From: Paracoccaceae bacterium
GTDB taxonomy: Bacteria > Pseudomonadota > Alphaproteobacteria > Rhodobacterales > Rhodobacteraceae
NCBI GenBank assembly: GCA_964291635.2
Contig: OZ219900.1
Location: forward strand, 6,246 to 70,245
Reading direction: 5' to 3'
Length of the DNA: 64,000 nucleotides
Shown: positions 364 to 47,754 of the stretch, in pieces
Layout: every line of letters begins with the position of its first letter
Numbering within the stretch: position 1 is the stretch's first letter
Made by a program: the position numbers and the translations under genes
Notes under the pieces: generated by a model
What the model was told of the DNA's origin: nothing
The model's input: the letters and a program-made list of their open reading frames with translations, nothing else
Databases searched by the model: none

Positions 364-600
364 TTGGGTTCAACGTCTTCGACCGAAGACCGTGTCAAGC
401 AGATCGTCATGGACCGATTCGATGGGATCATGCACCTGATTTCAGTGTCCGGTTCAGCGAAGTGAATACCCTCGATGGCAGCCGTTGCATTCCACGAGGT
501 GGTAACAGTGGGCTTGACGTGAGGCTGGCCACGGAAGACTGCCCCAGTTCAAAACACTGAAAGATCTCGTGGAGCATATCGACGCATGCGGATTGCCGAA
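364..600 (+). pseudogene. possible decayed carrier protein (PP-binding/ACP-like) ORF, broken over three frames
   Basis: Pieces in different frames join into an ACP-like sequence: STEDRVKQIVMDRFDG (frame of 364), APDFSVRFSEVNTLD (frame of 426), SMAAVAFHEVVTVGL (frame of 472), DVRLATED, then LPQFKTLKDLVEHIDA (frame of 539). This resembles the ...F.ElGlDSm.avel....e.fgv.l........f.Tl.dlv.hi pattern of carrier proteins. The start codon is unclear and at least 3-4 frame changes are needed. Confidence 0.25.
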
Positions 601-745: not shown

Positions 746-1687
746 TTGGGAAGAAAACAGGCCCTGATAGTGATGAAAAACGATTTGCCGTGGAACGTGC
801 CCAAGCCGATCTCGACATGCGACGTCCGGCTTGATGATTGTACTGTCACGACCGTGCGCAGGTACGGTAATCCATCCGGCACCCGACTGATCCTGACCCA
901 CGGAAACGGTTTCGCCATCGATGTCTACTATCCGTTCTGGTCGCTGTTCACGGGTGATTTCGACGTGATGGTCTACGACCTCAGGAATCATGGCTGGAAC
1001 AGCGTCAGCGACCGCCGGAATCACAATATCCCGACACTGATCGCCGATCATGACCTCATTCTCGACGCCATCTTTCGCGACTACGGAGAGAAAACGACAG
1101 TCGGAGTCTTTCATTCCCTGTCGACGTTGGTGACCCTCCTGTCATTCAACGACTACCGTTACTCGGCGCTGGTCCTGTTCGACCCGCCGCTATGCAAGCC
1201 TGCGGCGAGCGAGGCTGAATTCGACGCCGCAGCGGAACGCACGGCGGCGTTGGCTCGTCAGCGGACGGAGCGCTTCGCGAATGAAGGGCAGTTCGTCGAA
1301 CTGCTTGCCTTTGTTCCGGGATTTGCGCGCGTATTGCCGGGAGTGCGCGAACTCATGGCGAGATCGATGCTACGGAAAACGGAAGATGGAAATGGCTACG
1401 AACTCCGTTGCCCCCGTGACTATGAGGCTCAAATCGCCGAATACGTGCGGAGCTTCTCACCGCTTCTGGATTTGACCACCCTGGCCTGTCCGACCAAGGT
1501 TGTCGGAGCCGACCCTACGGTTCCCTACGCATATCTGCCTACCTTCGACCTCAGCCATGCAATGGCGGTCGATTACGACTTTGTGCCCGAGGCATCGCAT
1601 TTCCTACAGCTGGAAAAGCCGGAAGAATGTGCTGCAATTCTGTGGCAGTTCCTAGAGCGGCAGGGTCTGGCCCAAAACAGAATCTGA
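746..1687 (+). CDS. alpha/beta-fold hydrolase
   Basis: 313-aa ORF. It has an HGNGF oxyanion-type motif, a nucleophile-elbow-like VGVFHSLST and a C-terminal ...EASHFLQLEKPEE typical of the fold. The track start at 746 is TTG; the ATG at 773 (MKNDLPW) is an alternative. Convergent with the PKS gene. Confidence 0.8.
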   Translation: MGRKQALIVMKNDLPWNVPKPISTCDVRLDDCTVTTVRRYGNPSGTRLILTHGNGFAIDVYYPFWSLFTGDFDVMVYDLRNHGWNSVSDRRNHNIPTLIADHDLILDAIFRDYGEKTTVGVFHSLSTLVTLLSFNDYRYSALVLFDPPLCKPAASEAEFDAAAERTAALARQRTERFANEGQFVELLAFVPGFARVLPGVRELMARSMLRKTEDGNGYELRCPRDYEAQIAEYVRSFSPLLDLTTLACPTKVVGADPTVPYAYLPTFDLSHAMAVDYDFVPEASHFLQLEKPEECAAILWQFLERQGLAQNRI

Positions 1688-1837: not shown

Positions 1838-4800
1838 TCACGTCTTGTCGAACCAGAAGCTCCGACGCTGGAAAGGATACCCCGGCACCGAGATACGTCG
1901 CCGTGCCTCACCTGTGAAGAGGCCCGTGAAGTCGAGCACGTGCCCTGCCTCATACACTTGAGCCACCGATCGAACATGGCCGCCTTCTCCACCGGGACCG
2001 ATCTCCACCAAAGTCATTTCGTCCAGACCCGCGAGCATCGCCGGCGTTCCGGACAATTCCGCACGACGGAATACGCTGGCGCTCCAGGTTGATCTGTCCG
2101 GAGTCGCCCCCGACTGGATCATTCGGCCGGTCGTGCCGTCCAGCAACGGCATCCGGGCAGGTGCGAACGAAAGGTCCTCAAGGAACGAGTCGACGTCTCC
2201 GGGGTCCAAATCACCGCAATCCGCCCCCGTCATCTCTCCCCGCCTCGCCGCGAGAAGCATACCGGCTTCAAGATCGAACACCCCCGCCGCCTGTGCCGCC
2301 GCGATTTCGCCGACCCCGCTGGCACACACCGCGCCGGGCGAGATTCCGAGGCTCGACCACAGCACCGTCACTGCACATTGGAGCGCATAGGCTGCGGCCT
2401 GTACCGGCAAGGGATCGTCCGCAACTTCCGCCTGCCCTGAAATCGCGTCGAGCAGCGATATGCCGCGTTTTTCGCGGAGCGCAGCGTCACAGCGATCAAT
2501 GACTGCCCTCGCCGCCGGCTCGCTTTCGTACAACTCCTGTCCGCGACTTGCCCAATCACCAGCCTCTCCTGCAAAGACGAAAGCCGGTTTTCCCCGCCCT
2601 TGCGGCTTCACGATGCCACCATTGTCGGTGATGCGGGCCAATCCTTCTCTCAGCGTCGGGGCATCCTCGAACACGACACCCGCCCGATGCTCCAGGTGAC
2701 TGCGCCCGATTGCCGCCGTCCACGCCATGTCTGCAAGGTGCGAAGTGCCCGCGTCGTCGTCGGACGAAACGTCTTCCAAGTGTTCGTCGAGCCACCCGAG
2801 ATACAGATCCGCCAATTCCTTGAGTGCGCTTGAAGATTTTCCCGACAGGGGCAGTAGTCGCACGCGGCGCGGCTTGTGCCCGTCATCCGCCAGCTTCATG
2901 TCCTTGAGGAACTCCGGCAGGCGAATCGGTACGCGCTTCGTCGGCCCGACCGGAGATCGATGCGCGCCGTTCCCTGTAGAGTCGTCGCCTATTGCCGAAT
3001 GCCCCTCGACGATCAGGTGTGCGTTTGTTCCCGAAATACCGAATGCGCTGATTCCGGCCGTCGGCTGTCGGCCTGTCGCGGGTGGCCAGGCCGTTTCCTC
3101 TGCCGTGACCCGCACGGGAAGCTCAGCCCACTCGACATGCGGGTTGGGATTGTTGAAATGAAGATGCTTCGGGATCACGCCGTGCCTCATGGAAAGAAGC
3201 ACCTTGATGAGGCCCGCGACACCTGCGGCAGACTCGAGATGACCGATGTTCGTCTTGACGGTGCCGAGCAGGAGCGGACGTTCGGCTTCACGTTCGCGTC
3301 CGTAAACCGTGGCGACCGCACGCACTTCGATCGGATCGCCCAACTCCGACCCTGTGCCATGCACCTCGATGTAATCGAGGTCCCGCGGAGCGATGCCGGC
3401 CTGAGCCAAAGCCTCCTCGTATAGCCGTTCCTGAGCGATTCCGTTCGGGACCGTAAGCGCCGCGGCTGCGCCATTCTGGTTGACTGCCGAACCTTGAACG
3501 ATACCCCAGATACGGTCGCCGTCCTGTTCCGCATCGCTGAGCCGCTTCATGACCACCACGCCACAGCCTTCGCCACGTACGAACCCGTCCGCGTCGGCGT
3601 CGAAGGTCCTGCAAAAACCGGTTCGCGACAACATTCTGTACTCGCGCATGAACCGCATGACCGCAGGGGAAAGAACGATATGCACGCCTCCGGCGAGCGC
3701 CAGATCGACTTCGCGCTGCCTGAGACTCGCAGACGCCTGATGTATGGCCACGAGAGATGCCGCGCAGGTCATGTCGAGCGGTACCGCGGGTCCCATGAGC
3801 CCGAACGAAAACGCAACCCGTCCGATGGCCACGCTGGCGGCAGTGCCGAGATAACTGTCATCCCGGCCCGCGGCCGCAATCAGGTCCCGGTACTCGCTGC
3901 TGCCCAGGCCGGCGAACACCCCCGTGCGGCTGCCCTTGAGAGGTCCGGGATCGATTCCGGCGTCCTCAAGCGCATGCCAGCTCGTCTCGAGCAACATCCT
4001 CTGGCGCGGGTCCATCATTCGCGCCTCGATCGGCTGGATGCCGAAGAATTTCGCGTCAAACCGGTCAAGGCCCTGAAGGAACCCGCCGCGGCGAATCGTG
4101 GCTTCCTCGGCGACCGGATCTCCGACGACGCCGCTCCAGGGGCCGTCATCGCGACGCCCGTCGGTCACGGCGTCAGCGCCTGCCTTGAGCTGACGCCAGT
4201 AACTGGACAGGTCCGGAGCGCCGGGGAAGCGGCACGCCATGCCGACGATCGCGATCCGTTCCTGATCACTCTGCGCTCCGCCTGGCCGTTCCGGCGCCAG
4301 TTCGGCTGGCGGAAATGACTGTGCTTGCGGCACCGGCCACGGGCCGGGCGCCGGTTGCTCCTGCGGGGTCGCTTCGGGGTCGACTTCGCCGAGCTCCCCG
4401 TCAAGATGGCGTGCGAGTGTCTGGATCTCGGGGTAATCGAACACCACAGTGTTCGAAACCTTGCACGTGCCTGCAAACGCGCGATTAAGTCGGTTGCGCA
4501 GTTCCACGGCCATCAGGGAATCCATCCCGAGATCGAAGAATCCGACGTTGGGTGCGGGCGCCGACGGCAGCCGAAGCACCGCCTGCAATTCCTGTTGCAG
4601 GAATGTCACCAGCAAGTCTTCACGCTCACGCGCGTCGGCGGTGGCCAGCCGAACGAGCAGATCTTCGGTGGAAACCCCGGCATCGATGCTGTCCTCGGCG
4701 ACCGGTGAGAGGAGATCCTCGAGAAAGGCGGGGCGGTCTTCGACAGCTTCTTCGAAAACCGACCAGTCCATGGCCATCACGACGGACGTCGTGACGTCCT

Positions 4801-7800
4801 GACGCACGAGTCGGTCAAGCGCCCTTATACCTTGCTGTGGTGTAAACCAGCGTCCGCCGAGGGCCGACCTTTGTCGCTCGATCCGGTCCTTCTGCTCCGC
4901 CGCTTCGCCGATTTCGGACCACGCCCCCCAGGCGATGGCCTGTCCGGGAAGTCCCAGCGACCGACGGTGGCCAGCGAGTTGATCCAGAAAGGCGTTCGCC
5001 GAAGCATGGTTGGCCTGACCCGGATTGCCCATGACACCGACGCGGCTGGAAAACAGGATGAAGAGATCGAGATCGCGGTCTGCCGTCACGCGGTGCAGGT
5101 GCCAAGCTCCGAGGATCTTCGGCCGGAGCACCGTTTCGAATTTTTCCCAGTTCTGGTTGGTGAGCGCACCGTCCGACAGCACGCCGACGCTATGGATGAC
5201 GCCCGCAAGCGGTGGCAGCTCTTTATCCATCCGGGCCAGCATTTCGTCGACCGCTGCCACGTTCGACACGTCCGCGAGTTCGACACGTATGGTCGCGCCC
5301 GCATCTTCGAGCGCGCGAATGGCCTCCTGCGCGGCCTCGTCCGGAGGCCGCCGGCCGTTCAGCACGATCGTGCCGGCCCCCAGGTCTGCAAGCCATTCGG
5401 CCACGGCCAGACCGATGCCACCCAATCCGCCGGTCACAAGATAGGTACGATCCTCCCGCAACCGGCCCGACACCAGCGGCTGCGTAGCGACGACGATCTT
5501 ACCGAGGTGCCGTGCCGAGCGCATGAACCTCAAGGCTGCCCCCGCTTCGGCCAGCGGCCAGCGGCTGTGGACGAGCGGCTTGAGTTCACCCGCCGCGAGC
5601 CGCGCCACGACGTCCCTGAGGACACGCCCCACCCATGCGGGATCGGTCTTCTTCAGGACATCGAGTTCGAGAATGGCATAGGTGACATCCGGTCGTACCG
5701 CCGCCATTTCCTCTTCGCTGAGAATGTCGCGCCTCGCCAGTTCCACGAACCGGCCGTCCTGCGCCAGACAGGACAAACTCGCGTCGATGAAACCCTCACT
5801 CGTCAGGCTATTCAGAACCACGGTCACGCCCGCGCCGTTCGTGGCATCGAGAATCTCCTCGCCGAAACCCGTCTGGCGGCTGTCGAAGACGTGCTTGACG
5901 CCAAGCGACCGCAGATAAGCCTGCTTCGGCGCACTTGCCGTCGCAAAGACTTCCGCTCCGGCGGCCTGCGCCAACCGGATCGCCGCAAGGCCGACACCGC
6001 CGGCGCCTGCGTGAATCAACACGCGGTCACCAGCCTCGAGCCCGGAGAGTTCGTATGAGAGCGCAGCCGATACGTAAGCGCTCGGCACAGTGGCGAGGTC
6101 CGTTCCCGGAATGCCCGGTGGCGCGGGCGCCACCAGTTCCTCGTGCGTGACCATTTCCGCGGCGAACGCCCCAAACCCCAGGCCAACGACGCGATCGCCC
6201 ACTGAGACATTGGTCACTTCCGAACCCACGCCGACGACGTGGCCGCACATCTCCCGCCCCAGATTCCCTTCTTCGATGAAACCGAGCGAGCGGAATACGT
6301 CCCAGAAGTTCAATCCGGCGGCCTCGACCGCGACCCGCACTTCCCGTCCTTCGAGGGGCAGCCCAGGCAGTAGCTTGACGCAGGGCCTTTCGAACACGCC
6401 CGTCGGATCCGGAGTCAGCACCCAGGTCTTTTCCGTCGGCAGGTCCAGTCGTTCCGGACCGTCGCCCGTCCGAACCAGTCGGGCAGCCTGACGGCTCCCC
6501 TGGCGCCAGGCGATGTGGTTTTCCGAATCCGGGTACATCAGTTCATCGACAAGATCGGTCGCGTGCGCCGGGACCGTCGGATCCAGATCGATCATTCGTG
6601 GCATGAGATGCGCCGCTTCACGCGCCACGGCCTTGCCGAACCCCCACAACGCCGCTCCGGCAAGTGCCCCTTGGGTCTCGCGCTCCAATACCTGGGCGCC
6701 CCGGGTAATGAACCACACGCCCTTTTCCGGGATTCGGTCGGAATCGGCCACGCCCTGGACGAGCGCCAGGGCACTCGCTCCCGCATGCTGAATATCCTGT
6801 TCGATATCGCGCGCGGTTGCCTCTCTACCGTGGCCGTCGAGCGCCGCGAGGTGCACGATCCCGTAGAAGGGCGCAGCGCCGGGCAGGTCGTCAAGCAGCG
6901 CCTGCCACGATTCGCGCCGCCGGACATCGGTACTTGCGGCAATCACGCTGTCGGCACCAGATTCCTTCCTGTCTCCCGAGCTGTCACTCACGACCAGGAC
7001 GGTCTGGTTCCGCGCCGCCAGAGCGTTCGCAAGCCCTTCCGCCGTGCAGCCGCTGTCTGCAACGAGAACCCACGTTCCCGGTGCTTCGGACACCTCGTCC
7101 GGGCCCTTTGCCACGATCACTCCGCGATCCGGCATCTCGTCGGGTTGCGATGCATCGAGGCCCAGGATTTCTGCAGCGTCGAACCCTGCATCGTCGAGTG
7201 CACGGCACCAGACGTCGGGACTCGCCAGGGCATGATGCGGCCGGTAATCGTCCGCAAATCGCCACCAGCCGTCGAGCTGTCCGAACGTCAGGTCCATCCA
7301 GCCCTGACCGCGAAGGTTCTCGAGCGCTACCATCTGTCCCGACGGTGCGAGCAGGGTCAGGCAATGAGCGAGAGTCTCGTCGAGATAGCGCGTGGCATGG
7401 AGCACGTTCGACGCGATGATCAGGTCATAGGCATGAGCGTCGAAGCCTTGCGCTACCGGATCCTTCTCTATGTTGAGAGGGCGGTATTCGATGCAGCCTC
7501 CGCCATCCCCGAAGCGCGCCTCGGCCTCTGAAAAGAACCCCGCCGAAATGTCCGTGTACATGTAATCGAAATTGCCTTCGGGAAGCTCCGGCAGAACGGA
7601 AGCGGTTGCCGAGCCTGTGCCCGCCCCGACTTCGATCACCCTGAGACGCCGCCCGGCTGGCAGCCTTGCCACGAGCGCCCGGACAGCATCCCCGAGCAGC
7701 CGGTTGGCAGCAAGCGCGATCGGCGCATTCAGGTACAAATCGCCCGGGGTCGGGTAGCCGCTGCTGAACAGCAGCGTGAGCGGATCCATCCCGCCCCGAA

Positions 7801-10800
7801 GCACCTCGGGCAACGCGGCCCCACAGCGCCGGAACAACCCGATCTCCGTTGCACCGTGCGGATGAAGTTCGGCCAATTCGTCGGCGAACAGTTCCGGATC
7901 AGGCTGAATCTCGTCAGGCAGGGGATCGCCATGCCCGACCTTCACGAGGAAACGGCCGCCGTCCTCCTGCAGCACGCCCGACCGGGCCAGCATCTCCAGC
8001 AACCGGCGGAAGACACGCTTGTGCTCGTCGATGACGCCGAGTTGTTGCCGAAGGTCTTCGGACTCCACGACCTCACCCGAGCCACGCCTCCAACCGAGCT
8101 TCTCGAGCGTCCAGAGTGCGCGGGTACGCGACCATCGCTCAAGATCCGACAAAAGCGCGGATCGATGGGCACGCGCGACACCCCTTTCCTCGAGGTAATC
8201 CGCGAGCGGCATGAAGCTGCGCGCAACAGTCGCAGGTTCCGGCAGAAAATCAGCGGAGGTGATTGCCGGCACGAGGGGGCGCTCGCGCCAGACGACCTCG
8301 TACAATAAGTCGTTCACGCCTTCGATCGCCGAGAAGAGCGCGGCCCGTGTCGCGCGCTTGATCGTGTAACCGTCCAGTCCGCCGAGCAGGGCGCCGTCGG
8401 GATCGTAAATGCGCAATTCTCCGCTCAGGACCTCCGCAGGCCCGCCCTCTTCCGCATTCGGTTCCCCGAAAGCCTCGCTCATGCGTACGTGGCAAAACAC
8501 CCGATCGGGAAGGCGGTCGGACGTCAGCCAAAGACGTTCCCAGCCGAAAGGCAGGTACGTGGTTTCGTCTTCGGCCGAGTCCTGAATCCGTGCTGCAGCC
8601 ACGACCTGGAAACACCCGTCCAGCACAAGCGGATGAATTTCCGCATGGGTTCGGCCGGTCCCTTCCCGCAAGGACACTTCGCCGAGAGCCTCGCCCTGCC
8701 GCGCCCACAGGTTGCCAAGCGTGCGGAAGCTCGCGCCGAGATCGATACCGGTCGTCCCCCTGGCCTGGTACAGGGTCGATGCATCCAAGGAAGACAGTTC
8801 GGACTTCAGGCGCTCAAGATCCGCACGCTGCACGGCGCCTGGCATGTCTGCGCCGGTCGTTATCCTGCACTCGGCGTGCAACATCCAATCCACCTCGTCC
8901 GATCCCTTGCTGAGTATCTGCAAAGAGCCCGGTTCCGTTTCGCCGGGACCGCCGAGAACAAGCTGGATTTTTCGACCTGCCGCTTGGGTTTCGTCGCCAT
9001 GGACCTCCGCGGCGAACACCATTGGGTTATGCAACTGCATGTCTTCGACGACGACCGGCCCGCTGGTGCCGGACAGCGACACCGATGCCGCCATCGTGCC
9101 GTAAAGCGCACCCGGAGCGATGACCCGTTCGAACACGCGATGGTCGTCGAGCCACTCCGGATCCGTAGGGAACAATTCTGTTTCATACGTAACTTCGCCA
9201 CTCGCAGATTCCCTTCGCAGGCCCAGCAGGGGGTGTCCCTCGAGGGTTCGCCTTTGCTTCGGCGCGCGCAACCAATAGCGTTCGCGCTGGAACGGATATC
9301 CGGGCACGGATATGCGGCGACGGGTTTCTCCGGCAAAAAGGCCCTCGAAGCGGATCGGCAGTCCAGACTGATACGCAGCCGCGACTGCTTCGGAAAAACC
9401 GCCCGTACCTGCTGGTGAGGCGGCCGGCGCGGGCTGGATGCTCGACAGCACGACAGGGGCGGGCACCGAATTCGGCCAGGTAGAGGACGCCATGGGGGCC
9501 AACACGGAGCGCGGGCCGATCTCAAGGATCACGTCCACACCGAAATCAGCGAGCGACCTGGCGCCACTGGCGAAGGCGACGGGTTCCCGCGCATGCCGAC
9601 GCCAATAGCCTCCATCCAGCAGTTGGCCATCGCTCACCGCCTGGCCCGTCAGGTTGCTGACGAAGGTCAGTTCAGGCGGTTGGACCGAGACGCGATCGAG
9701 GGAGGCCTGGAGCGCCTCGAGGGCCGGTTCCACGAGCGCGCTGTGGAACGCCCGGGTCGTGTTCAGCCTGCGTACCCGGACACCTTGCAATTCGAGCCGC
9801 GCCGAGAGCGTTTCGACATCCGCGGCGGGACCGCTGACCACCTGGTGCAGCCCGTTGTCCGCCGCGATGTTGACACCAACACCTGCAGATTCCGCGTTTA
9901 CGGCCGTGATTGCAGTCACCACCTGTTCCGGAGGTGCGAACACGGCGGCCATGGCACCAGTTTCTGTTTCCGACAGCAGCGTGCCGCGCGTACAGGCGAA
10001 CCGCATGCCGTCTTCGAGGCTGAACACGCCCGCTGCCTGTGCCGCCGCGATTTCTCCGACACTGTGCCCGAGAACAACATCAGGTTGTATTCCGACACTC
10101 GCCCATTGTGCGGTCAGCGCGCATTCGAGCGTGTAGAGGGCCGGTTGTTCCCAGGCCGTGTTGCCCAGTTGCTCGCCGCTGCTGCACCCGAACATCACAT
10201 CCAGCAGGGATGTGCCGCGCATTTCGAGAAAGACATCTTCGCAGCGGTCGAAGACCGTCCTTGCCACGGGTTCGTGGTCGTACAGGTCGCGACCCATACC
10301 AGCCCACTGGCTTCCCTGGCCAGTATAGGCAAACGCGACGGTGGCCGCTGCGCGGGACGTCGCATCGAGGTCCGTCTTGGCCAGTGTTCCAAGCCGCTCC
10401 CGCAGCTGGCCGACACTGTCGAAGATGAGGCCTGCACGGCAATCGAAATGACACCGCCCAACACTCGCCGTCCACGCCATGTCCGCGAGCAGCGGCGCCG
10501 GCAGCCCGCCTTCGGCCGGAAACTCACCAGCCTGTTCGTCGAGCCATGACAGGTACCGCTTGGCGTATTCGCGCAACGCAGGAACCGATTTACCGGACAG
10601 CGGGAGCAGCCGAACTCTGCGCTCCTGGCACGTTTGTTCATGCCGCGCCGTATCGAGGGAAACCGTTGGCGGCGGCACGACCACTTCCTGACCCGATCCC
10701 ATGACCCAGGGCCCATCATAAGGAGCAGTATCCGATGCCGGGTATTCCTCGACCACGATGTGAACGTTGGTCCCGGAAATACCGAACGAGTTCACGCCTG

Positions 10801-12178
10801 CCAGGCGCGGTCGCCCGTCCCGGGCCGGCAAATCCATCATGGACGAGGTCACCTGCAGCGGCAGCTCATCCCAGTCCATGCTCGGGTTGGGATCCCTGAA
10901 GTGCAGATGCTTCGGGATCACGCCGCGCTGCATCACCAGCACGGCCTTGATCAGGCCGGCGATACCGGCGGCCGATTCCAGATGTCCGAGGTTCGTTTTG
11001 ACGGAACCGACAAGGAGTGGCTGGCCGGCCCCGCGGCCCTTGCCATAAACACTGGCGACGGCATTGATTTCGATCGGGTCACCGACTGCCGTTCCGGTGC
11101 CGTGCGCCTCCAGGTAATCGACGTCTGATGCCGAAACACCGGCCTGAGACAACGCCGTCTCGATCACCTGTTCCAGCGCGGGTTCGTGCGGTACGGTCAA
11201 TCCGATGCTGGCACCGCCATGGTTGACCGCAGAGCCCCGGATCACTCCCCATATCCGGTCGCCGTCGGCTTCCGCGTCGCACAGGCGCTTCAGGACCACG
11301 GCACCGCAGCCTTCGCCACGCACATAGCCGTTCGCAGAGGCGTCGAACGCCTTGCACTGTCCGTCGGGGGACAACATCATCGAATCGGCACGCAGTTCGA
11401 AGATGCGACTGTTCAGAATAGCCTGGACACCGCCGGCAATGGCCAAGTCCGCCTTGCCTTGCTGGAGGTCCGAGACTGCGTCGTGTACCGACACCAGGGA
11501 TGACGCGCAGGCGGCATCTACGGCCTTAGCTGGACCCATGAATCCCAGCACGAATGAAACCCGCCCGCTGGTGCCGTTCAGGTTGGTTCCGCTCAGAGCG
11601 TACAGGGACGCCGCGGCCTCTCCCGGCCTCTCCGAATTCGCGACGAGCATCCGGTACTCGTCGTTGCTGATGCCCGTGTATACGCCGGTCAGACTTTCCC
11701 TGAGCCGATCAGGGTCCATCCCTGCATCCTCGAGCGCCTGCCAGCTCGTCTCCAGCATCATCCGTTGCTGGGGATCGAGCAGTTCGGCCTCGACCGGCGA
11801 GATTCGAAAGAACCCCGCGTCGAACTGATCGATATCATCGACGTAGGCGCAGTAGCGGCAAGCACCTTGCAGGTTCCGGGGGTCGTTGAACAATTCGTCA
11901 AGACGGTCAGGGCCCGAGCCCGGTACGCCGTCCGTCACCGCGTTGCCGCCGGTTTCGAGCAGGCGCCAGAACGAACGAATGTCGGGCGCGCCGGGGAAAC
12001 GGCATGCCATGCCCACGATCGCAACGGGCTCTGCGCGCAGGAGCGTCTCGTCGACCTTGTGGTCCCTGGTCGCCTGGTACTGTTCGGGTCCGTCGCGCTG
12101 CATCTCACTTTCCATCAAATTCCCCGTCTTAGCGCATGCCCCGGACTTGTCCAACCAGAGACAAACGAATCCCGGCAA
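1838..12178 (-). CDS. type I polyketide synthase, KS-AT-DH-CMeT-ER-KR-ACP-KS-AT(like)
   Basis: Uninterrupted 3446-aa ORF (alternative ATG at 12115, MESEMQ...). Motifs read from the translation: KS1 DAACASS (Cys224), EAHGTGT, KTNLGHLE. AT1 GQGSQW, GHSVGE (Ser706), RAFHS. DH HPLLG, LDDHRVFERVIAPGA, LDGCFQ. CMeT VIEVGAGTGS (aa 1514-1523). ER LIHAGAGGVGLAA. KR TYLVTGGLGGIGL. ACP GMDSLMAVEL (Ser2554). KS2 DMTCAASL (Cys2805), EVHGTGS, KTNIGHLE. The C-terminal AT-like region has ASGVGE where GHSxGE is expected. Approximate nt spans: KS1 10745-12028, AT1 9464-10342, DH 8339-9238, CMeT 7229-7861, ER 5474-6436, KR 4904-5452, ACP 4394-4636, KS2 3005-4258, AT-like 1904-2587. Confidence 0.97.
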   Translation of the reverse strand: MPGFVCLWLDKSGACAKTGNLMESEMQRDGPEQYQATRDHKVDETLLRAEPVAIVGMACRFPGAPDIRSFWRLLETGGNAVTDGVPGSGPDRLDELFNDPRNLQGACRYCAYVDDIDQFDAGFFRISPVEAELLDPQQRMMLETSWQALEDAGMDPDRLRESLTGVYTGISNDEYRMLVANSERPGEAAASLYALSGTNLNGTSGRVSFVLGFMGPAKAVDAACASSLVSVHDAVSDLQQGKADLAIAGGVQAILNSRIFELRADSMMLSPDGQCKAFDASANGYVRGEGCGAVVLKRLCDAEADGDRIWGVIRGSAVNHGGASIGLTVPHEPALEQVIETALSQAGVSASDVDYLEAHGTGTAVGDPIEINAVASVYGKGRGAGQPLLVGSVKTNLGHLESAAGIAGLIKAVLVMQRGVIPKHLHFRDPNPSMDWDELPLQVTSSMMDLPARDGRPRLAGVNSFGISGTNVHIVVEEYPASDTAPYDGPWVMGSGQEVVVPPPTVSLDTARHEQTCQERRVRLLPLSGKSVPALREYAKRYLSWLDEQAGEFPAEGGLPAPLLADMAWTASVGRCHFDCRAGLIFDSVGQLRERLGTLAKTDLDATSRAAATVAFAYTGQGSQWAGMGRDLYDHEPVARTVFDRCEDVFLEMRGTSLLDVMFGCSSGEQLGNTAWEQPALYTLECALTAQWASVGIQPDVVLGHSVGEIAAAQAAGVFSLEDGMRFACTRGTLLSETETGAMAAVFAPPEQVVTAITAVNAESAGVGVNIAADNGLHQVVSGPAADVETLSARLELQGVRVRRLNTTRAFHSALVEPALEALQASLDRVSVQPPELTFVSNLTGQAVSDGQLLDGGYWRRHAREPVAFASGARSLADFGVDVILEIGPRSVLAPMASSTWPNSVPAPVVLSSIQPAPAASPAGTGGFSEAVAAAYQSGLPIRFEGLFAGETRRRISVPGYPFQRERYWLRAPKQRRTLEGHPLLGLRRESASGEVTYETELFPTDPEWLDDHRVFERVIAPGALYGTMAASVSLSGTSGPVVVEDMQLHNPMVFAAEVHGDETQAAGRKIQLVLGGPGETEPGSLQILSKGSDEVDWMLHAECRITTGADMPGAVQRADLERLKSELSSLDASTLYQARGTTGIDLGASFRTLGNLWARQGEALGEVSLREGTGRTHAEIHPLVLDGCFQVVAAARIQDSAEDETTYLPFGWERLWLTSDRLPDRVFCHVRMSEAFGEPNAEEGGPAEVLSGELRIYDPDGALLGGLDGYTIKRATRAALFSAIEGVNDLLYEVVWRERPLVPAITSADFLPEPATVARSFMPLADYLEERGVARAHRSALLSDLERWSRTRALWTLEKLGWRRGSGEVVESEDLRQQLGVIDEHKRVFRRLLEMLARSGVLQEDGGRFLVKVGHGDPLPDEIQPDPELFADELAELHPHGATEIGLFRRCGAALPEVLRGGMDPLTLLFSSGYPTPGDLYLNAPIALAANRLLGDAVRALVARLPAGRRLRVIEVGAGTGSATASVLPELPEGNFDYMYTDISAGFFSEAEARFGDGGGCIEYRPLNIEKDPVAQGFDAHAYDLIIASNVLHATRYLDETLAHCLTLLAPSGQMVALENLRGQGWMDLTFGQLDGWWRFADDYRPHHALASPDVWCRALDDAGFDAAEILGLDASQPDEMPDRGVIVAKGPDEVSEAPGTWVLVADSGCTAEGLANALAARNQTVLVVSDSSGDRKESGADSVIAASTDVRRRESWQALLDDLPGAAPFYGIVHLAALDGHGREATARDIEQDIQHAGASALALVQGVADSDRIPEKGVWFITRGAQVLERETQGALAGAALWGFGKAVAREAAHLMPRMIDLDPTVPAHATDLVDELMYPDSENHIAWRQGSRQAARLVRTGDGPERLDLPTEKTWVLTPDPTGVFERPCVKLLPGLPLEGREVRVAVEAAGLNFWDVFRSLGFIEEGNLGREMCGHVVGVGSEVTNVSVGDRVVGLGFGAFAAEMVTHEELVAPAPPGIPGTDLATVPSAYVSAALSYELSGLEAGDRVLIHAGAGGVGLAAIRLAQAAGAEVFATASAPKQAYLRSLGVKHVFDSRQTGFGEEILDATNGAGVTVVLNSLTSEGFIDASLSCLAQDGRFVELARRDILSEEEMAAVRPDVTYAILELDVLKKTDPAWVGRVLRDVVARLAAGELKPLVHSRWPLAEAGAALRFMRSARHLGKIVVATQPLVSGRLREDRTYLVTGGLGGIGLAVAEWLADLGAGTIVLNGRRPPDEAAQEAIRALEDAGATIRVELADVSNVAAVDEMLARMDKELPPLAGVIHSVGVLSDGALTNQNWEKFETVLRPKILGAWHLHRVTADRDLDLFILFSSRVGVMGNPGQANHASANAFLDQLAGHRRSLGLPGQAIAWGAWSEIGEAAEQKDRIERQRSALGGRWFTPQQGIRALDRLVRQDVTTSVVMAMDWSVFEEAVEDRPAFLEDLLSPVAEDSIDAGVSTEDLLVRLATADAREREDLLVTFLQQELQAVLRLPSAPAPNVGFFDLGMDSLMAVELRNRLNRAFAGTCKVSNTVVFDYPEIQTLARHLDGELGEVDPEATPQEQPAPGPWPVPQAQSFPPAELAPERPGGAQSDQERIAIVGMACRFPGAPDLSSYWRQLKAGADAVTDGRRDDGPWSGVVGDPVAEEATIRRGGFLQGLDRFDAKFFGIQPIEARMMDPRQRMLLETSWHALEDAGIDPGPLKGSRTGVFAGLGSSEYRDLIAAAGRDDSYLGTAASVAIGRVAFSFGLMGPAVPLDMTCAASLVAIHQASASLRQREVDLALAGGVHIVLSPAVMRFMREYRMLSRTGFCRTFDADADGFVRGEGCGVVVMKRLSDAEQDGDRIWGIVQGSAVNQNGAAAALTVPNGIAQERLYEEALAQAGIAPRDLDYIEVHGTGSELGDPIEVRAVATVYGREREAERPLLLGTVKTNIGHLESAAGVAGLIKVLLSMRHGVIPKHLHFNNPNPHVEWAELPVRVTAEETAWPPATGRQPTAGISAFGISGTNAHLIVEGHSAIGDDSTGNGAHRSPVGPTKRVPIRLPEFLKDMKLADDGHKPRRVRLLPLSGKSSSALKELADLYLGWLDEHLEDVSSDDDAGTSHLADMAWTAAIGRSHLEHRAGVVFEDAPTLREGLARITDNGGIVKPQGRGKPAFVFAGEAGDWASRGQELYESEPAARAVIDRCDAALREKRGISLLDAISGQAEVADDPLPVQAAAYALQCAVTVLWSSLGISPGAVCASGVGEIAAAQAAGVFDLEAGMLLAARRGEMTGADCGDLDPGDVDSFLEDLSFAPARMPLLDGTTGRMIQSGATPDRSTWSASVFRRAELSGTPAMLAGLDEMTLVEIGPGGEGGHVRSVAQVYEAGHVLDFTGLFTGEARRRISVPGYPFQRRSFWFDKT

Positions 12179-12379: not shown

Positions 12380-13100
12380 GTCATGGACAAGCGCTATCGG
12401 TCATACTGATCTCTGTCTTCCCGAGTGTGCAGGCAACGACGCAGGAGAACAACCATTTTTCCTGACTGGTGCGATCAAGCAGGGATGTGACCGGACGCAT
12501 AGACGCAGGACCTGTGCCGCGCATGTTTGCGGTAGGGACGCCGGCTTCCCCGAATCCTCCAGCGGCACGGAAGCATGCCCGGGGTTTTCGGCAATTTCGT
12601 TTGGTCATGGCACTCCGGGCTGTATCAGGGAACTGTTGACTGCCACGCCGGGCATCGCCGGCATCGCTGTGAACCTACCGCTCCGGGTCGGAATGACCGC
12701 AAGGAACTCCACGGCCTTCGACAGAGCAGAGAAATCGAAATCTGCCCCAGGTGAATGTGGCGCGGTTCTGCCATTTCAATGACGCACGGCACCGAATGGC
12801 CGCGAAAACGCCCGACGTGACCCCGTTTCGAAGGAATCCAGCGGCGAATTCGGAAACGGCATCACGCAAGGCCAGGTCAAGCCCGGGCACCGCTCATTTC
12901 CGATGTGGGGCGTGACCTCCAGCGGCCCGACCATCATCGTTTCTCCTGTGCCGCGGTCGTCGGCCAGCATGAATTGCACGGCTGGCGCGGCAGTATCTCT
13001 CCGCGGACGCGATAGATCCCGTGCGCCGGTGGCCCGAGCCGAGCTGAATGGCAAGACGGATGCGTAAAGCGGTCACCCCTCACGGTTAGGTCCCTTCCGT
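12380..13100 (-). pseudogene. decayed tandem paralogue of the 3' third of the permease gene at 13286-15055
   Basis: Frame-hopping fragments on the minus strand match the intact gene. LRIRLAIQLGSG vs GMRVAIQDGVD. FAAGFLRNGVTSGVFAAI vs FAGGLLQNGVTSGGVVAIL. ADFDFSALSKAVEFLAVIPTRSGRF vs ADFDFSILPEIREFLAAFATRSGWR. VVLLRRCLHTREDRDQY vs ISLRLLRWLSASVRHQRY. There are several stops and frameshifts and no intact ORF. Confidence 0.5.
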
Positions 13101-13285: not shown

Positions 13286-15055
13286 TCAGCTCTTCGAATC
13301 CGGTGCCGCAACGCGGACGGTGACAATGTCCGATTCGTGATAACGCTGATGTCGAACCGACGCGGAAAGCCAGCGCAGAAGCCGCAACGAAATCTCGCTC
13401 TCGGCGGGCGAGTCGCCCGGATCATCGCCGATAGCCATGAGGCGATCCTGGATGTTGCCGTCCCCCGCAGCAACGGTGAACTCGAGAACGGCCGTATCGC
13501 CTTCCTGGTGGGCGGAAATGCGCAGCTGCCGTCGTTTGCGTCCCTCTCCGGCGTCCTCCCCGTCCTGGAAAAGCGACAGAAGCGTCTCTTCGCAGGCCGC
13601 GTTGAGCCGCTCGGACATCTCCACTCTCCACCCGCTCCGGGTCGCAAAGGCCGCGAGAAACTCCCTGATTTCCGGCAGGATGGAGAAATCGAAATCCGCC
13701 TTGAAGTGGCTCCGGCGCGATCTTGTCATTTCCACGAAAAGCGTCATCAAAATGGCCACGACTCCGCCCGACGTTACGCCGTTCTGCAGGAGACCGCCGG
13801 CAAATCCCGTGACCTGTTCGGGAAATACCATGTTGTTCTGAAAGCCGACGCCGACCCAGAACGACAGCCCGACAATCACGTTTTTCCGGTTGTCGACCCC
13901 ATCCTGAATGGCGACTCTCATCCCGACCGTGAAAAGCATCGCGAGCAGCACGCCGAGATATCCTGCGACCACCGGTCCGGGAATCGCGAGTACGACGGCC
14001 AGAACCTTCGGAAAGAAGGCCATGGCGATGAAAATCATGCCGGCCGCGATGCCGACGCTACGTGCCGCAACCCCCGTGAGGTCGGCCACTGACGCACCCA
14101 CCGTTGTGGCTGCGTTCGGAACCGTTCCGGCAAAACCGGAAAGCAGGTTTCCCAGGCCATCGACCGTGATCGCTCCCTGGACAGCGCGAAAATCCACCGC
14201 CCGCTTCCTGCGCCACGAGACGTGCTGGATGGCGACGGCGCCGCTGATCGTTCGGATGGAAGCTATCGCGCCCACGAGCAGGAATGCCGGCAGAAGTGCC
14301 CAGAAAGCCGGTCCGAACTCGAGATCGAATCCCGCCCATTCGCCCGCCGGAAACCCGATCCACGGCGCATCGAGCACGCGGTTCACGTCGTACAGGCCGA
14401 ACGTGGCGGCAACGACCGAGCCGACGACGACACCCACTATCGATGCCCAAAGGCGGAGCGCGCCCGTGGCCTTCAGCGCGATCCCGGCGATGACGAGCAC
14501 TGTCGAGAGAGCGCACAACGGCGGCACCACCGCCGGGGTCCCTGGCGGCACCGCAGAAAGCAGATCGAACACGGCCGGCATTACCGTGACCGGGATCAGC
14601 ATGAGTACGGTGCCCGAAACCGTAGGCGTCAGCAGCCGCTGAAACAGCGAGAGCCGGGCGGCCAGCACGATGGGTACGAACGAGGAGACGACGACCAGTG
14701 TTGCCAACAACTCCGGACCCCCTTCCCGGACGGCAGAGATGCAAACCGCGATGAAGGAACCGGTCGCTCCCATGATGATCACATAGCCCGATCCGATCCT
14801 CCCGATCCGGAATGCCTGTAGCATCGTCGTCGCACCACAGACTGCAACTGTCGCGAACACGGCCCAGGAAAGATAGCTCTCGCCCGCACCGCCTGCGCGC
14901 ATCACGATCGTCGGGACCAGTATGATGCCGGCGATGGTAAGCACGGCTATTTGCAAGCCGAGACCGAATGACAGGGCAGGTGCCGGCGTTTCGTCAGGCT
15001 GGTAGCGGATCCCGGGGCCGCTGGCCGCAACGGTGCTCACGGAGTATCTCCGCAC
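13286..15055 (-). CDS. NCS2 (xanthine/uracil/vitamin C permease family) transporter with C-terminal RsbW/SpoIIAB-like (HATPase-like) domain
   Basis: 589 aa. Residues about 20-455 are a multi-TM NCS2-like core (LGLQIAVLTIAG..., NAATTVGASVADLTGVAARSVGIAAG..., PGPVVAGYLGVLL). Residues about 458-589 are soluble and align by eye with anti-sigma-factor kinases (see findings). Confidence 0.85.
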   Translation of the reverse strand: MRRYSVSTVAASGPGIRYQPDETPAPALSFGLGLQIAVLTIAGIILVPTIVMRAGGAGESYLSWAVFATVAVCGATTMLQAFRIGRIGSGYVIIMGATGSFIAVCISAVREGGPELLATLVVVSSFVPIVLAARLSLFQRLLTPTVSGTVLMLIPVTVMPAVFDLLSAVPPGTPAVVPPLCALSTVLVIAGIALKATGALRLWASIVGVVVGSVVAATFGLYDVNRVLDAPWIGFPAGEWAGFDLEFGPAFWALLPAFLLVGAIASIRTISGAVAIQHVSWRRKRAVDFRAVQGAITVDGLGNLLSGFAGTVPNAATTVGASVADLTGVAARSVGIAAGMIFIAMAFFPKVLAVVLAIPGPVVAGYLGVLLAMLFTVGMRVAIQDGVDNRKNVIVGLSFWVGVGFQNNMVFPEQVTGFAGGLLQNGVTSGGVVAILMTLFVEMTRSRRSHFKADFDFSILPEIREFLAAFATRSGWRVEMSERLNAACEETLLSLFQDGEDAGEGRKRRQLRISAHQEGDTAVLEFTVAAGDGNIQDRLMAIGDDPGDSPAESEISLRLLRWLSASVRHQRYHESDIVTVRVAAPDSKS

Positions 15056-15694
15056 AAAATGTCCATCTGAATTCCGTAACTCCTACGACACCGCGTGGAT
15101 CATCCTCGGCGTAACGGACATTGCGGTCCCGCAAAACTGCCTCATCCGATTCCGTCATGCAACCATGTGCCGTCGGGATCCTGATTTCGACGGTTGTTTT
15201 GCGGTTTGCACGACATTTGATACCGGCGGGTACTTCTGGCTCGACCGGATTTCGGCCCCATGTCGACCGGGCGCAGCATTGTCGCCGGTTGAGTGCCGTT
15301 GCCACGGATCCGGATCTTGCCGGCCTGCCAGTCGCTGTCGTCGAGCCGTATGGCGATTTCACATTTTGGACATTCCGTTGAGGCTTCTGCATGGCATGGC
15401 GGAATTTGCCGATGCACGGGCAAGATTTCCTCGACGTCCCGATTGTCCTCACCGGGATCGGGATTCCTTGAAACCTGGAAAATTCCGTGCCGGTCGAAAA
15501 TATCAATCTTTTCCAGTCGTCTCTTGCGGAAAGCACGAAGCGAGGACCAGGTCTGGCCGTGCCTCATTCCGAAAAGCCGTCGCCAACGACATCGATTGAA
15601 GGTATACGGATCAGCAAATCCGAGGATAATACGGACCAGGTTCAGCGACGCCGTCCGGCGTTCGATCCTGGATCGTCAACGAGGGACCGGTACC

Positions 15695-16627
15695 ATGCCC
15701 CGTCAACGCCGCACCGTCATAACCTGTGCCATAACCGGTGCGATTCACACGCCGACGATGTCGGACGCCTTGCCATTGACCTATGATGACATTGCGACGC
15801 ATGCGATCGGGGCCGCCGAAGCCGGCGCGTCGATATTGCATCTCCACGCAAGGAATCCCCGGGATGGGTCTCCGTCAGTCGATCCGGACGATTTCACTCC
15901 ATTCCTGCAACGCATCAAGCAAGCCAGCGACTCGGTCGTGAATATTTCGACGGGCGGGTCACTTTCTCTGTCGATCAAGGACCGGATCAAGCCGGCAAGA
16001 CAGTTTGAACCCGAAATGTGCTCGCTGAACATGGGTAGTTTCAACTTTGCCTTTCATCAACTGGCCGGGCGTTACGAGACCTGGAAGTACGACTGGGAAA
16101 AAGCCTACGTTGAGGGATCGGAAGCAAATATCTTTCGAAACACCTTTCGCGACATACGCGAGGCTGCCGAAGCGCTTGCCCCGCTCGGGATCAAGTTTGA
16201 ACATGAATGCTACGACGTCGGCCATCTCTACAATTTGAAGTTCTGCATGGATTCCGGGCTATTCCATCCGCCAGTGTTCATCCAGTTCATCTTCGGGATC
16301 CTCGGAGGAATCGGAGCCGAAATCGACAATCTCGTTTTCATGAAACGGACGGCGGACCGCCTGTTTGGCGACTCCTATCGCTGGTCGGTGCTCGGGGCGG
16401 GAGGCGCTCAGATGCCTTTGGCAACCACTGCCAGCCAAATGGGAGGTCATGTTCGGGTCGGACTGGAAGACAGCCTGTATATTGCCCGGGGCAAGCTGGC
16501 AAAGAGCAACGCCGAGCAGGTTGCCAAGATCCGCAGAATCGTCGAGGACCTTGGCTGCCAACCGGCGACCCCGGACGAAGCAAGGGAAATCCTTGGACTG
16601 AAAGGGGGCGACCGGGTCGCATTCTGA
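15695..16627 (+). CDS. BKACE family enzyme (3-keto-5-aminohexanoate cleavage enzyme-like, DUF849)
   Basis: MPRQRRTVITCAITGAIHTPTMSDALPLTYDDIATHAIGAAEAGASILHLHARNPRDGSPS... is the typical BKACE N-terminus. The track ORF opens at 15293, but ATG 15695 gives the family-typical length of about 310 aa. Confidence 0.85.
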   Translation: MPRQRRTVITCAITGAIHTPTMSDALPLTYDDIATHAIGAAEAGASILHLHARNPRDGSPSVDPDDFTPFLQRIKQASDSVVNISTGGSLSLSIKDRIKPARQFEPEMCSLNMGSFNFAFHQLAGRYETWKYDWEKAYVEGSEANIFRNTFRDIREAAEALAPLGIKFEHECYDVGHLYNLKFCMDSGLFHPPVFIQFIFGILGGIGAEIDNLVFMKRTADRLFGDSYRWSVLGAGGAQMPLATTASQMGGHVRVGLEDSLYIARGKLAKSNAEQVAKIRRIVEDLGCQPATPDEAREILGLKGGDRVAF

Positions 16628-16799
16628 GAACGCCGGGCTGCGCATTGTTTGCAGCTCGTTCCGATCGCGAACAGCCGTTCCAGGACGTTTCGCAAAGGTG
16701 ATCGATTCCGTCATCCGCCAATGAAAAACTGACGGAATCGAAGCTGACTTCGCGGTGTGCGCGGCCGTTACTGCATGCGCTCGTCATCGTGTGACCGCC

Positions 16800-17861
16800 T
16801 CACGATCGATCAAGTCCTGCGACGGCCAATTTGGCCAAAACCGGAATCGCTTTCGACAACTCGAAGGCCTTTTCGGGATTGGATGCGTTTCCTCGAATGG
16901 CCCGGCTCCGGACACCGGCAAGGATTGCCGCCAGCCGAAACAGGCTGAAGATCGTGTGAAAGGTCCAGTCCGCAGGAAAGCCCATGGCCATCCGGGAGCA
17001 GTATTGCTCCACGATCTCTTCTTCCTCCGGAATCCCGGCCGATCTCCGGTCGACCCCTGCCAATCCGCGCATGAAGAACCCCTCGTTCGGAAGGCGTTGT
17101 TGGGCACACAGGTTCGCCAGGTCGGAAACCGGGTGACCAAGTGTCGACAATTCCCAGTCGAGAACCGCAGTGACTTCGGGACGACCTGCGTGGAAGATCA
17201 CATTGTCGATGCGGAAATCGCCGTGAACAATGCTGGCCAATCCGTCGTCCGACGGGACATTTTCCTCCAACCACGGAATGACCTGGTCCAGCATAGGCTC
17301 CGGCGCCTCCTCGGCCTTCCGGTACAGCGAAATCCACAAGGCTGCCTGGCGCTCGATGTACCCTCGCGGCCTGCCGAAGTCGGACAGTCCGACTGAATCG
17401 GGGTCGACGGAATGGAGCCTCGCCAGGGTCCGAACCATGTCGGAATAGACCTGGCTGCGTTCCACGGCGGGAAGTTCAGGGAGCGCCGGGTTCCAGAAAA
17501 CCCGGCCCTCTACATGCCTCATCACGAAAAACTGCCGACCGAGCGGATTGTCCTCCCCGCTCAGAAAGACGGTCTCCGGAACAGCGACGTCACCAGCGGA
17601 AAGCGCACGCAAGACCCTGAACTCGCGGTCAACGCGATGCGCGGAACGGACGAGCTTTCCGGGCGGTCTTGCCCGCAAGACGAACGAACCCCCGGAACCG
17701 GAGATCAGGTAAGTCGGATTCGACTGGCCATCCGGGAACTTCCGGCTTCCCGTATATGTGCCCAGCCCGGTGACGCGGGCTTCCAGGTACGGGCCGATTT
17801 CCGGTGGCAGCGTGTGCTCGACCTGATGCTCTCCCGTGGCGTCCGAGGGTTGTCGAATCAT
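16800..17861 (-). CDS. phosphotransferase (APH/ChoK-like kinase) family protein, ACAD10/11-associated type
   Basis: 353 aa with the motifs FPDGQSNPTYLISG, VLRARPPGKL, HGDFRIDNVIFH and VLDWELSTLGHP, typical of aminoglycoside-phosphotransferase-fold kinases. Confidence 0.85.
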   Translation of the reverse strand: MIRQPSDATGEHQVEHTLPPEIGPYLEARVTGLGTYTGSRKFPDGQSNPTYLISGSGGSFVLRARPPGKLVRSAHRVDREFRVLRALSAGDVAVPETVFLSGEDNPLGRQFFVMRHVEGRVFWNPALPELPAVERSQVYSDMVRTLARLHSVDPDSVGLSDFGRPRGYIERQAALWISLYRKAEEAPEPMLDQVIPWLEENVPSDDGLASIVHGDFRIDNVIFHAGRPEVTAVLDWELSTLGHPVSDLANLCAQQRLPNEGFFMRGLAGVDRRSAGIPEEEEIVEQYCSRMAMGFPADWTFHTIFSLFRLAAILAGVRSRAIRGNASNPEKAFELSKAIPVLAKLAVAGLDRS

Positions 17862-18025
17862 TGCATCATCGCGGGGATTCGGGATTCGTCAACGCGATTT
17901 CGGGATCACGCGCGGGTACTTCAGGCACAAGGCTCAGACCTGAACCCGAAACGAATTTGCCCGTCGGGTGCCGCTCCGATCCTGACGTTGCCAATGAGCA
18001 TGATGTTCCGCCGCGCGTCCGCCTG

Positions 18026-31478: not shown

Positions 31479-31566
31479 CGTGCCTCCCTGAAAAAGAGGC
31501 CCGGCCATGCGTCACGGGCACGGCCGGGTCGGAAAATGTCGGATCATCGTTGTCGATCGGGGCGCC

Positions 31567-43371: not shown

Positions 43372-43396
43372 CGATCCCGACCCGAAAATCCGCGCT

Positions 43397-44533: not shown

Positions 44534-44769
44534 GGGAAACGATACCGTTTCGGTTGTCCGTCATGTCTCGCCATCCTCGATCCCCGGTCAAAAAATCTGT
44601 TTCCAACGTACAGGGAAACCCGTATCTTCCCACGCTGTTGAACGTCAACAGTAATCAGGCGCCGGGCAACCGGGGCAAACGCCTGAAATCCGCGGGTCTC
44701 CCGCGGCTCTTGGCCGGGACAAGGGGCAAGGTCAGGACTGTTGCGCGAGGAGTCGATTGTGGGGGACGC

Positions 44770-46641: not shown

Positions 46642-46743
46642 AATGACGGAGGGAAACGGGCGACCTGAGGTCCTGGCGTCCTTCCGCCCGCTCCCGGGAA
46701 CCGGCTGCAAGCCGCTGACGGAGATTTTGCCGCCGGGGCTACC

Positions 46744-47724: not shown

Positions 47725-47754
47725 CCATAGCCCGGCGGCGATCGGAACACGCAC

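Follow-up and report, generated by a model that had tools for sequence, protein, structure and literature searches.

A probable SupA-type polyketide synthase gene in a Paracoccaceae bacterium, with a second ketosynthase, an acyltransferase remnant and a decayed carrier protein gene

Organization of the PKS gene

The stretch of DNA analyzed here (the window) comprises 64,000 nt of the genome of a Paracoccaceae bacterium (assembly GCA_964291635.2, contig OZ219900.1, positions 6,246 to 70,245), and carries on its minus strand, at 1838..12178, a gene for a large type I polyketide synthase (PKS) of the kind that resembles fatty acid synthases (FAS). The gene is probably of the SupA type (Sup, sponge symbiont ubiquitous), belonging to a Paracoccaceae symbiont and having a second module that is split between the PKS and separately encoded partners. 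The open reading frame (ORF) is uninterrupted and specifies 3446 aa when counted from a TTG at position 12178, although a comparison with close relatives indicates that the true start is probably the ATG at 12115 (MESEMQ) or the one at 12103 (MQRDG). The protein ends with the sequence ...RRISVPGYPFQRRSFWFDKT, and the stop codon (1838-1840) had to be considered as a possible artefact. This can be dismissed, because the same ORF is found in 62 homologous loci and all of them end at the same alignment position, which shows both that the stop codon is genuine and that the architecture is a trait of the family.

Pfam searches placed a ketosynthase (KS, residues 50-427), acyltransferase (AT, 616-902), dehydratase (DH, 982-1281), methyltransferase (MT, 1498-1668), enoylreductase (ER, 1945-2231), ketoreductase (KR, 2245-2422) and phosphopantetheine-binding acyl carrier protein domain (ACP, 2527-2592) in the first part of the protein. 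A C-methylating, reducing module of the order KS-AT-DH-MT-ER-KR-ACP is thus held within a single gene of ~10 kb. The tail that follows has further copies of the KS, of the KS-AT linker domain (3108-3186) and, as a weaker match, of an AT stretch, and neither Pfam nor a structure model of the tail revealed a carrier, thioesterase (TE), reductase or condensation domain after the second KS (KS2). An initial annotation of this DNA had described the same 3446-aa ORF and domain order, and a C-terminus lying just past the post-AT linker with none of these domains in cis; the ORF check and the Pfam results bear out both descriptions.

The first module

The domains of the first module are described here with their coordinates, all on the minus strand. 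KS1 (aa 50-480, 10739..12031) has its active-site Cys within DAACASS and the two His residues within HGTGT and GHLES, and it carries the DPQQR motif (LLDPQQRMMLE) as well as EAHGTGT. AT1 (aa 616-905, 9464..10333) shows GQGSQ, GHSVG and RAFHS, a malonyl-type signature that would fit a methyl branch derived from S-adenosylmethionine (SAM). The DH (aa 982-1281, 8336..9235) includes HPLLG...DDHRVFERVIAPGA, while the C-methyltransferase (aa 1498-1668, 7175..7687) has the SAM motif VIEVGAGTGSAT together with NVLHAT. The ER (aa 1945-2231, 5486..6346) carries the NADPH motif LIHAGAGGVGLAA, the KR (aa 2245-2422, 4913..5446) TGGLGGIG as its NADPH motif along with an LSD motif of the B type, and ACP1 (aa 2527-2592, 4403..4600) the sequence LGMDSLMAVEL.

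These signatures are retained throughout the family. In a motif census of 63 sequences, the Cys/His/His residues of KS1, the DH His, MT motif I, the NADPH sites of ER and KR and the DSL of the ACP are all kept, as are GQGSQ, GHSxG and (R/K/H)AFHS of AT1. KS1 of the window and its homologues share a median identity of 77% across phyla, and the domains of the module as a whole have median identities of 75-81% between bacteria of different phyla (loci L003-L082). Such high values over such distances point to a horizontal spread of the PKS cluster among sponge symbionts.

The KR departs from the usual pattern at one position. Where the catalytic Tyr is expected, it has His2391 (codon 5006-5008), within GQANHASAN rather than a YAAAN-type sequence, and His occupies this position in 63/63 sequences (GQxNH(A/S)(A/S)AN). 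A HMMER alignment with the KR of AmphB, which reads GQPGYAAANAYLD where the window protein reads GQANHASANAFLD, confirmed the substitution. The Lys, Ser, NADPH motif and B-type LSD motif of this KR are all still present.

The second ketosynthase and the acyltransferase remnant

KS2 (aa 2647-3060, 2999..4240, minus strand) retains the Cys-His-His triad at exactly the three residues given in the initial annotation: Cys2805 in DMTCAAS, His2940 in EVHGTGS and His2980 in NIGHLES. The triad is kept in 61/63 family sequences and, judged by its sequence, KS2 is a condensation-competent paralogue of KS1. On the same strand, KS2 is followed by the second KS-AT linker domain (aa 3108-3186, 2621..2857; PF22621 and PF22336), an AT remnant (AT2; aa 3196-3400, 1979..2593), and a post-AT linker (aa 3401-3446, 1841..1978) that ends in PGYPFQRRSFWFDKT. 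KS1-AT1 and KS2-AT2 are only 48.5% identical over 686 aa, compared with median identities across phyla of 77% (KS1) and 65% (KS2) among orthologues; by these values the tail is an old internal duplication, older than the spread of the family. Identity of KS2 to the solved cis-AT didomains of CurL and DEBS is about 30-34%, and when the tail was modelled with AlphaFold (pLDDT 82), the model superposed on the KS-AT didomain of CurL with a TM score of 0.82.

The AT remnant lacks what is needed for catalysis. FAGEAGDW stands in place of GQGSQ and ASGVG in place of GHSxG, and the small subdomain is deleted along with the His of the xAFH motif. When AT2 was aligned with AT1 and FabD of E. coli, the aligned members were all found to be without the whole small (ferredoxin-like) subdomain of ~70 aa and without the xAFH His. 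Measured as the length from motif to C-terminus, which could be done in roughly 50 members, the shortening is at least 45 aa. The initial description of an AT-like stub was therefore right in calling it truncated, but it overlooked the total loss of the small subdomain and of the catalytic His. A census of the GHSxG position returned ASGVG, GRDIG, GYGVG, GHDLG and GRGPG as common variants and no intact GHSxG; in a separate alignment, a locus of Thermodesulfobacteriota (L043) has GHSTG at the AT2 active site, yet its small subdomain and catalytic His are also deleted. In the window, other Paracoccaceae and Gammaproteobacteria, a further ~40 aa are missing before the post-AT linker.

Reduction has gone furthest in three loci (L075:4904-14452, L077:4865-14500 and L079:4535-14494) in which the AT remnant is lost entirely. 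The PKS proteins, of 3183-3320 aa, end just past the KS-AT linker domain; KS2 is kept, and so are the genes for the trans ACP, phosphopantetheinyl transferase (PPTase), hydrolase and permease that are described below. According to its Pfam list, L001 is probably also without the remnant. The AT remnant is a structural vestige that is dispensable in some lineages, and KS2 is the conserved functional element of the tail.

KS2-AT2 does not qualify as a cis-AT elongation module on either of two counts, as it has no active AT (ASGVG, with no small subdomain or His) and no ACP on the same polypeptide. AT2 being dead throughout the family, the malonyl-ACP used by KS2 would have to be loaded by another enzyme; AT1 in cis could do this, as could FabD or another trans AT. 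A scan confined to the larger ORFs of the window found no gene for a discrete trans AT.

Distribution of the family and its partner genes

A search with the last 800 aa of the PKS gave thousands of matches, many of them in metagenome-assembled genomes (MAGs) of sponge symbionts, whereas looking for the exact PKS sequence of the window in public assemblies gave no match. When one genome per GTDB species was scanned, 80 loci were recovered, all from MAGs, and in most of them the match covered the tail over its full length (residues 1 to 796-800), at 46-92% identity. Most of the 80 are sponge bins (SB, COS, IRC, RHO, APA) or long-read symbiont MAGs, and their taxa include Paracoccaceae, Gammaproteobacteria, Gemmatimonadota, Nitrospinota, Nitrospira, Acidobacteriota, Latescibacterota, Binatia, Thermodesulfobacteriota, Rhodothermales, Dehalococcoidia, Spirochaetia and Actinomycetes. 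A single ORF of 3365-4014 aa (3365-3622 in all but one) is present in 62 loci, which are for the most part sponge-associated and represent 12 phyla or more. Nearest to the window are L003 (complete chromosome OY759767.1) and L004 (COS2_bin_10), two MAGs of Paracoccaceae/Rhodobacteraceae with tails that are 91-92% identical to that of the window. The novelty of the architecture implied in the initial annotation is not upheld, since proteins of this kind are abundant and fit the Sup PKS family; close homologues with exactly this architecture do exist in the 62 loci, but none is known to have been biochemically characterized.

The neighborhood of the PKS is also conserved. The typical gene order across loci is PKS, ACP, Sfp-type PPTase, alpha/beta hydrolase and permease. 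The free-standing ACP is a protein of 75-81 aa, encoded mostly directly after the stop codon of the PKS, and a hidden Markov model (HMM) built from family ACPs detected a full-length gene within 10 kb of the PKS in 58/82 related loci. An Sfp-type PPTase with the motifs FNxSHSG, GVDxE and WTxKEAxxKA occurs in 36 loci, and the alpha/beta hydrolase is conserved across loci at 45-96% identity, so that the convergent hydrolase of the window, earlier named as a tailoring candidate, is a conserved partner of the PKS. In L001 and L002, the PKS is accompanied by a permease of the Xan_ur_permease family and an Abhydrolase_6 protein, and L002 has in addition a 76-aa PP-binding protein. The L001 locus is flanked by toxin-antitoxin genes (PIN, MazE). 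With an ACP and a release enzyme encoded in trans beside the PKS in relatives, the second module is therefore read as split, and a free-standing carrier protein, one of the options proposed earlier for KS2, is the best fit for the family.

State of the locus in the window

In the window, the free-standing ACP gene is a pseudogene (~373..595, plus strand). The remnant lies just upstream of the hydrolase gene and can be read piecewise in three frames; its ATG has become ACG, it has four frameshifting deletions, and its stop codon is lost. A nucleotide alignment with five relatives showed that one 1-nt deletion and the loss of the stop codon are common to the window, L003 and L004, and that deletions of 2, 1 and 1 nt and the change of ATG to ACG occur in the window only. 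The gene is intact in L006, L013 and L015. Assembly errors do not explain the frameshifts: the first indel is present in three independent assemblies and the adjoining 10.3-kb ORF is free of frameshifts, so the remnant is a real pseudogene. Searches of the 64 kb with tblastn and the ACP HMM detected no intact ACP beyond this remnant. An intact carrier gene adjacent to the PKS, the mark of a split module, is accordingly missing in the window and present in 58/82 related loci.

The alpha/beta hydrolase gene (746..1687, plus strand) has a likely start at ATG 773, and Ser124 (in FHSLS), Asp256 and His285 are invariant. The protein shares 96% identity with its counterparts in L003 and L004, and 45-72% with those of the other loci. 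No close solved homologue was found by sequence; a confident model (pLDDT 84) shows a generic alpha/beta hydrolase fold, and among its structural neighbors are the off-loading thioesterase CurM, at ranks 2-4, and MpaH, an acyl-CoA hydrolase. A role as the releasing thioesterase is a plausible prediction.

On the other side of the PKS is a gene for a 589-aa, SupE-like permease of the Xan_ur_permease family (13286..15055, minus strand), a co-conserved partner that is 58% identical to the permease of L002. Residues 32-405 form the Xan_ur_permease core and are followed by a C-terminal extension of ~180 aa without a Pfam match. The 1.1-kb gap between permease and PKS holds what looks like a fragment of a decayed second permease copy (12623..12878, minus strand), seen as two short pieces that match residues 408-435 and 453-493 of the neighboring permease at 44-46% identity. 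The hydrolase is thus not the only neighboring partner, as had first been thought; both the ACP pseudogene and the permease gene had been overlooked.

Selection since the loss of the ACP was estimated from omega values (Nei-Gojobori) for the pairs among the window, L003 and L004, all of whose divergence postdates the shared ACP frameshift. Omega is 0.185-0.196 over the whole PKS (0.185 for the window and L003), with a synonymous divergence (dS) of 0.15-0.20. It is 0.04 for KS1, 0.10-0.12 for KS2, 0.33-0.44 for the AT remnant, and 0.11-0.14 for the hydrolase (0.11 for the window and L003). The ACP-intact pair L006/L013 gave similar values, 0.08 for KS2 and 0.33 for the AT remnant. The ACP remnants of the window and L003 differ from each other by 0.11 per site, which is near the synonymous rate and far above the nonsynonymous one (dN). 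Because omega has stayed low since the shared frameshift while the ACP remnant diverged to this extent, the substitution pattern indicates that the PKS, KS2 and the hydrolase remained functional after the adjacent ACP was lost. In this lineage KS2 must draw its extender from ACP1, from the housekeeping AcpP or from an ACP copy that is not linked to the PKS. The free-standing carrier that suits the family therefore does not suit this genome, where its gene is dead, and KS2 may here use ACP1, depend on AcpP, act independently of a carrier or have a non-canonical, non-elongating role.

Other genes of the window

No further PKS or FAS genes occur in the rest of the window, which includes hydantoinase genes, inositol-catabolism-like genes, an acyl-CoA dehydrogenase gene, regulators and an IS605 OrfB fragment. 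Upstream of the permease, at 15293-19225, are genes for a beta-keto acid cleavage enzyme (BKACE), an APH-family kinase and a Rieske oxygenase alpha subunit; these are probably unrelated to the PKS cluster, because the same families were not seen next to the PKS in the two relatives whose genes had been called (L001 and L002). At 27745-31508 are genes for hydantoinase A and B. A mobile or defence-type insertion is suggested by a fragment of an IS605 OrfB-type transposase (39653-40366, plus strand) beside a gene for an AAA_21 (AbiEii-like) ATPase (40727-41998, minus strand). The region 42172-49448 resembles an inositol catabolism cluster, with two GFO/IDH/MocA oxidoreductases, a TPP enzyme (IolD-like), a PfkB kinase and a class II aldolase.

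Comparison with known systems

The Sup PKS family was reportedly described in 2007 by Fieseler et al., and also by Hochmuth et al. in 2010; SupA was reportedly drawn from the outset with the extra KS-AT. Sup PKSs are unusually small, monomodular and FAS-like and dominate the KS amplicons of high-microbial-abundance sponges, and their proposed products are fatty acids with a mid-chain methyl branch (PMC4245539, PMC3908369). They are found only in sponges and are spread across phyla (PMC4245539, PMC3908369, PMC9426513), with SUP-like gene cluster families occurring independently of taxonomy in MAGs of Chloroflexota, Spirochaetota, Proteobacteria and Acidobacteriota (PMC9426513). DPQQR and HGTGT have been described as primer motifs for the Sup KS (PMC3908369, PMC4245539), and SupE (ABE03914) is listed as a permease (PMC3908369).

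The system described here shares with Sup the small, FAS-like, one-module PKS with a C-methyltransferase, the DPQQR and HGTGT motifs of KS1, the occurrence in sponge-associated MAGs that include Chloroflexota, Spirochaetota, Proteobacteria and Acidobacteriota, and a permease in the cluster (589 aa, 13286-15055) that corresponds to SupE by description. With PKS, ACP, PPTase, hydrolase and permease in this order, the five genes of the family would match supA-E. This genome differs in having an ACP pseudogene and no linked PPTase.

The Swf (sponge widespread FAS) system (SwfA-C) is another monomodular FAS-like PKS of sponge symbionts, with a SupE-like permease on the same fosmid (PMC3908369). SwfA, a protein of 2349 aa, has the order KS-AT-DH-ER-KR-ACP and thus neither an MT nor a second KS. 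DPQ(I/V)R and HATGT are found in its KS, SwfB and SwfC are its neighbors, and its partners are a reductase/sulfotransferase and a radical SAM enzyme (PMC3908369). Membership of this group was rejected for the window PKS, which has an MT, carries DPQQR and HGTGT in KS1, and has no reductase/sulfotransferase or radical SAM gene nearby.

Other well-known synthases resemble parts of the protein. The order of the first module, KS-AT-DH-(CMeT)-ER-KR-ACP, is shared with MAS-like (mycocerosic acid synthase) enzymes and with fungal highly reducing PKSs of the LovB type, and the best solved matches to the PKS include MAS and DEBS, at an identity of only ~30%. MAS differs in that its methyl branches come from methylmalonyl-CoA and it has no CMeT, and neither MAS-like nor LovB-type enzymes have a second KS with an AT remnant or a set of trans ACP and hydrolase. 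In trans-AT split modules the KS is likewise followed only by a linker or AT vestige, with a break after the KS and the ACP on another protein; the remnant described here, however, is an internal duplicate of the cis KS1-AT1 (48.5% identity), and KS2 is nearest to the cis-AT didomains of CurL and DEBS. Synthases of polyunsaturated fatty acids (PUFA; PfaA/PfaC) share the presence of several KS domains, more KS domains than active ATs, and fatty-acid-like products, but the tandem ACPs, chain length factor and FabA-type DH pairs of those enzymes are not present here, and the match to PfaA is partial and below threshold.

Proposed pathway and the role of KS2

In a pathway consistent with the domain content, malonyl units would be loaded by AT1 and an acyl primer extended by KS1, after which the CMeT would add an alpha-methyl group from SAM and the unit would be fully reduced by KR, DH and ER. 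The chain would then move from ACP1 to KS2 and be condensed with malonyl-ACP loaded by AT1 or FabD, AT2 being dead, and the hydrolase would release a methyl-branched fatty-acid-type lipid.

Several observations weigh against the Sup assignment and the split second module. The assignment is made from gene context and published descriptions rather than by direct sequence comparison, no protein match carried a SupA-E name, and we know of no Sup product that has ever been demonstrated. The pairing of KS2 with the free-standing ACP is inferred solely from gene order, and about a dozen other loci with long flanks are, like the window, without an adjacent ACP. A tblastn search of the 64-kb window detected no PPTase; with this enzyme missing and the trans ACP dead, the split-module scheme cannot run here as it does in relatives. 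Finally, under canonical rules a KR without its catalytic Tyr is reductase-dead. The family-wide change of Tyr to His would then imply a dead KR, which is at odds with the well-conserved DH and ER. A literature search turned up nothing decisive on this substitution, and the domain could be a short-chain dehydrogenase/reductase (SDR) ketoreductase in which His serves as the proton donor.

It is possible, although unlikely, that across the whole family KS2 shares ACP1 in cis and handles certain chain lengths or rounds of an iterative synthase, leaving the free ACP to serve the hydrolase or some other step. The KS domains of PUFA synthases share tandem ACPs in an analogous way; KS2 is under purifying selection in a lineage where the free ACP is dead; about a dozen loci have an intact PKS and no ACP within 10 kb; and AT1 is the sole working AT in the protein. 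Across many phyla, however, the free ACP gene mostly lies right after the stop codon that follows the KS2-AT remnant, which is the usual signature of a split module.

About as doubtful is a related proposal, in which KS2 is a bridging ketosynthase with no dedicated carrier. It would join the branched chain on ACP1 to FabD-loaded malonyl-AcpP, and so hand the chain over from the type I module to the type II FAS. If this were true, it would explain the mid-chain position of the methyl branch in sponge fatty acids, the dead or deleted AT2 in every member, and the loss of the free ACP here despite purifying selection on KS2.

A non-elongating KS2, acting in transfer, gatekeeping or off-loading to the hydrolase or another acceptor in the manner of a KS0 or the amide-forming KS of CalA3, is improbable. 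Such a role would accord with the lack of an active AT and of a cis ACP after KS2, and the KS-AT of CalA3 is among the structural neighbors, but a non-elongating KS has usually lost a His, whereas the Cys and both His residues are kept in 61/63 sequences, and most relatives have a dedicated ACP gene after the PKS. Least likely of all is that the locus is decaying and the PKS is a functionless relic that has not yet been disrupted, as might be supposed from the four indels and lost start codon of the ACP pseudogene, the lack of a PPTase in 64 kb and the permease fragment adjoining the PKS, for since the frameshift common to the window, L003 and L004 all three have kept the 10.3-kb ORF over a dS of 0.15-0.20, with omega values of 0.19 (PKS), 0.10-0.12 (KS2) and 0.11 (hydrolase), against a divergence of 0.11 per site in the ACP remnant.

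A SupA-type PKS with a split second module is thus the preferred reading, and it explains the apparent lack of a second ACP and a TE in the PKS by partners that are encoded in trans. What is added here to the picture of this family is an AT remnant that can be dispensed with, a conserved set of genes for the split module, a KR with His in place of Tyr, and a lineage whose partner ACP has decayed. That Paracoccaceae lineage represents a natural experiment, in which the partner ACP was lost while the PKS, KS2 and hydrolase stayed under selection, and it narrows the possible modes of action of KS2.

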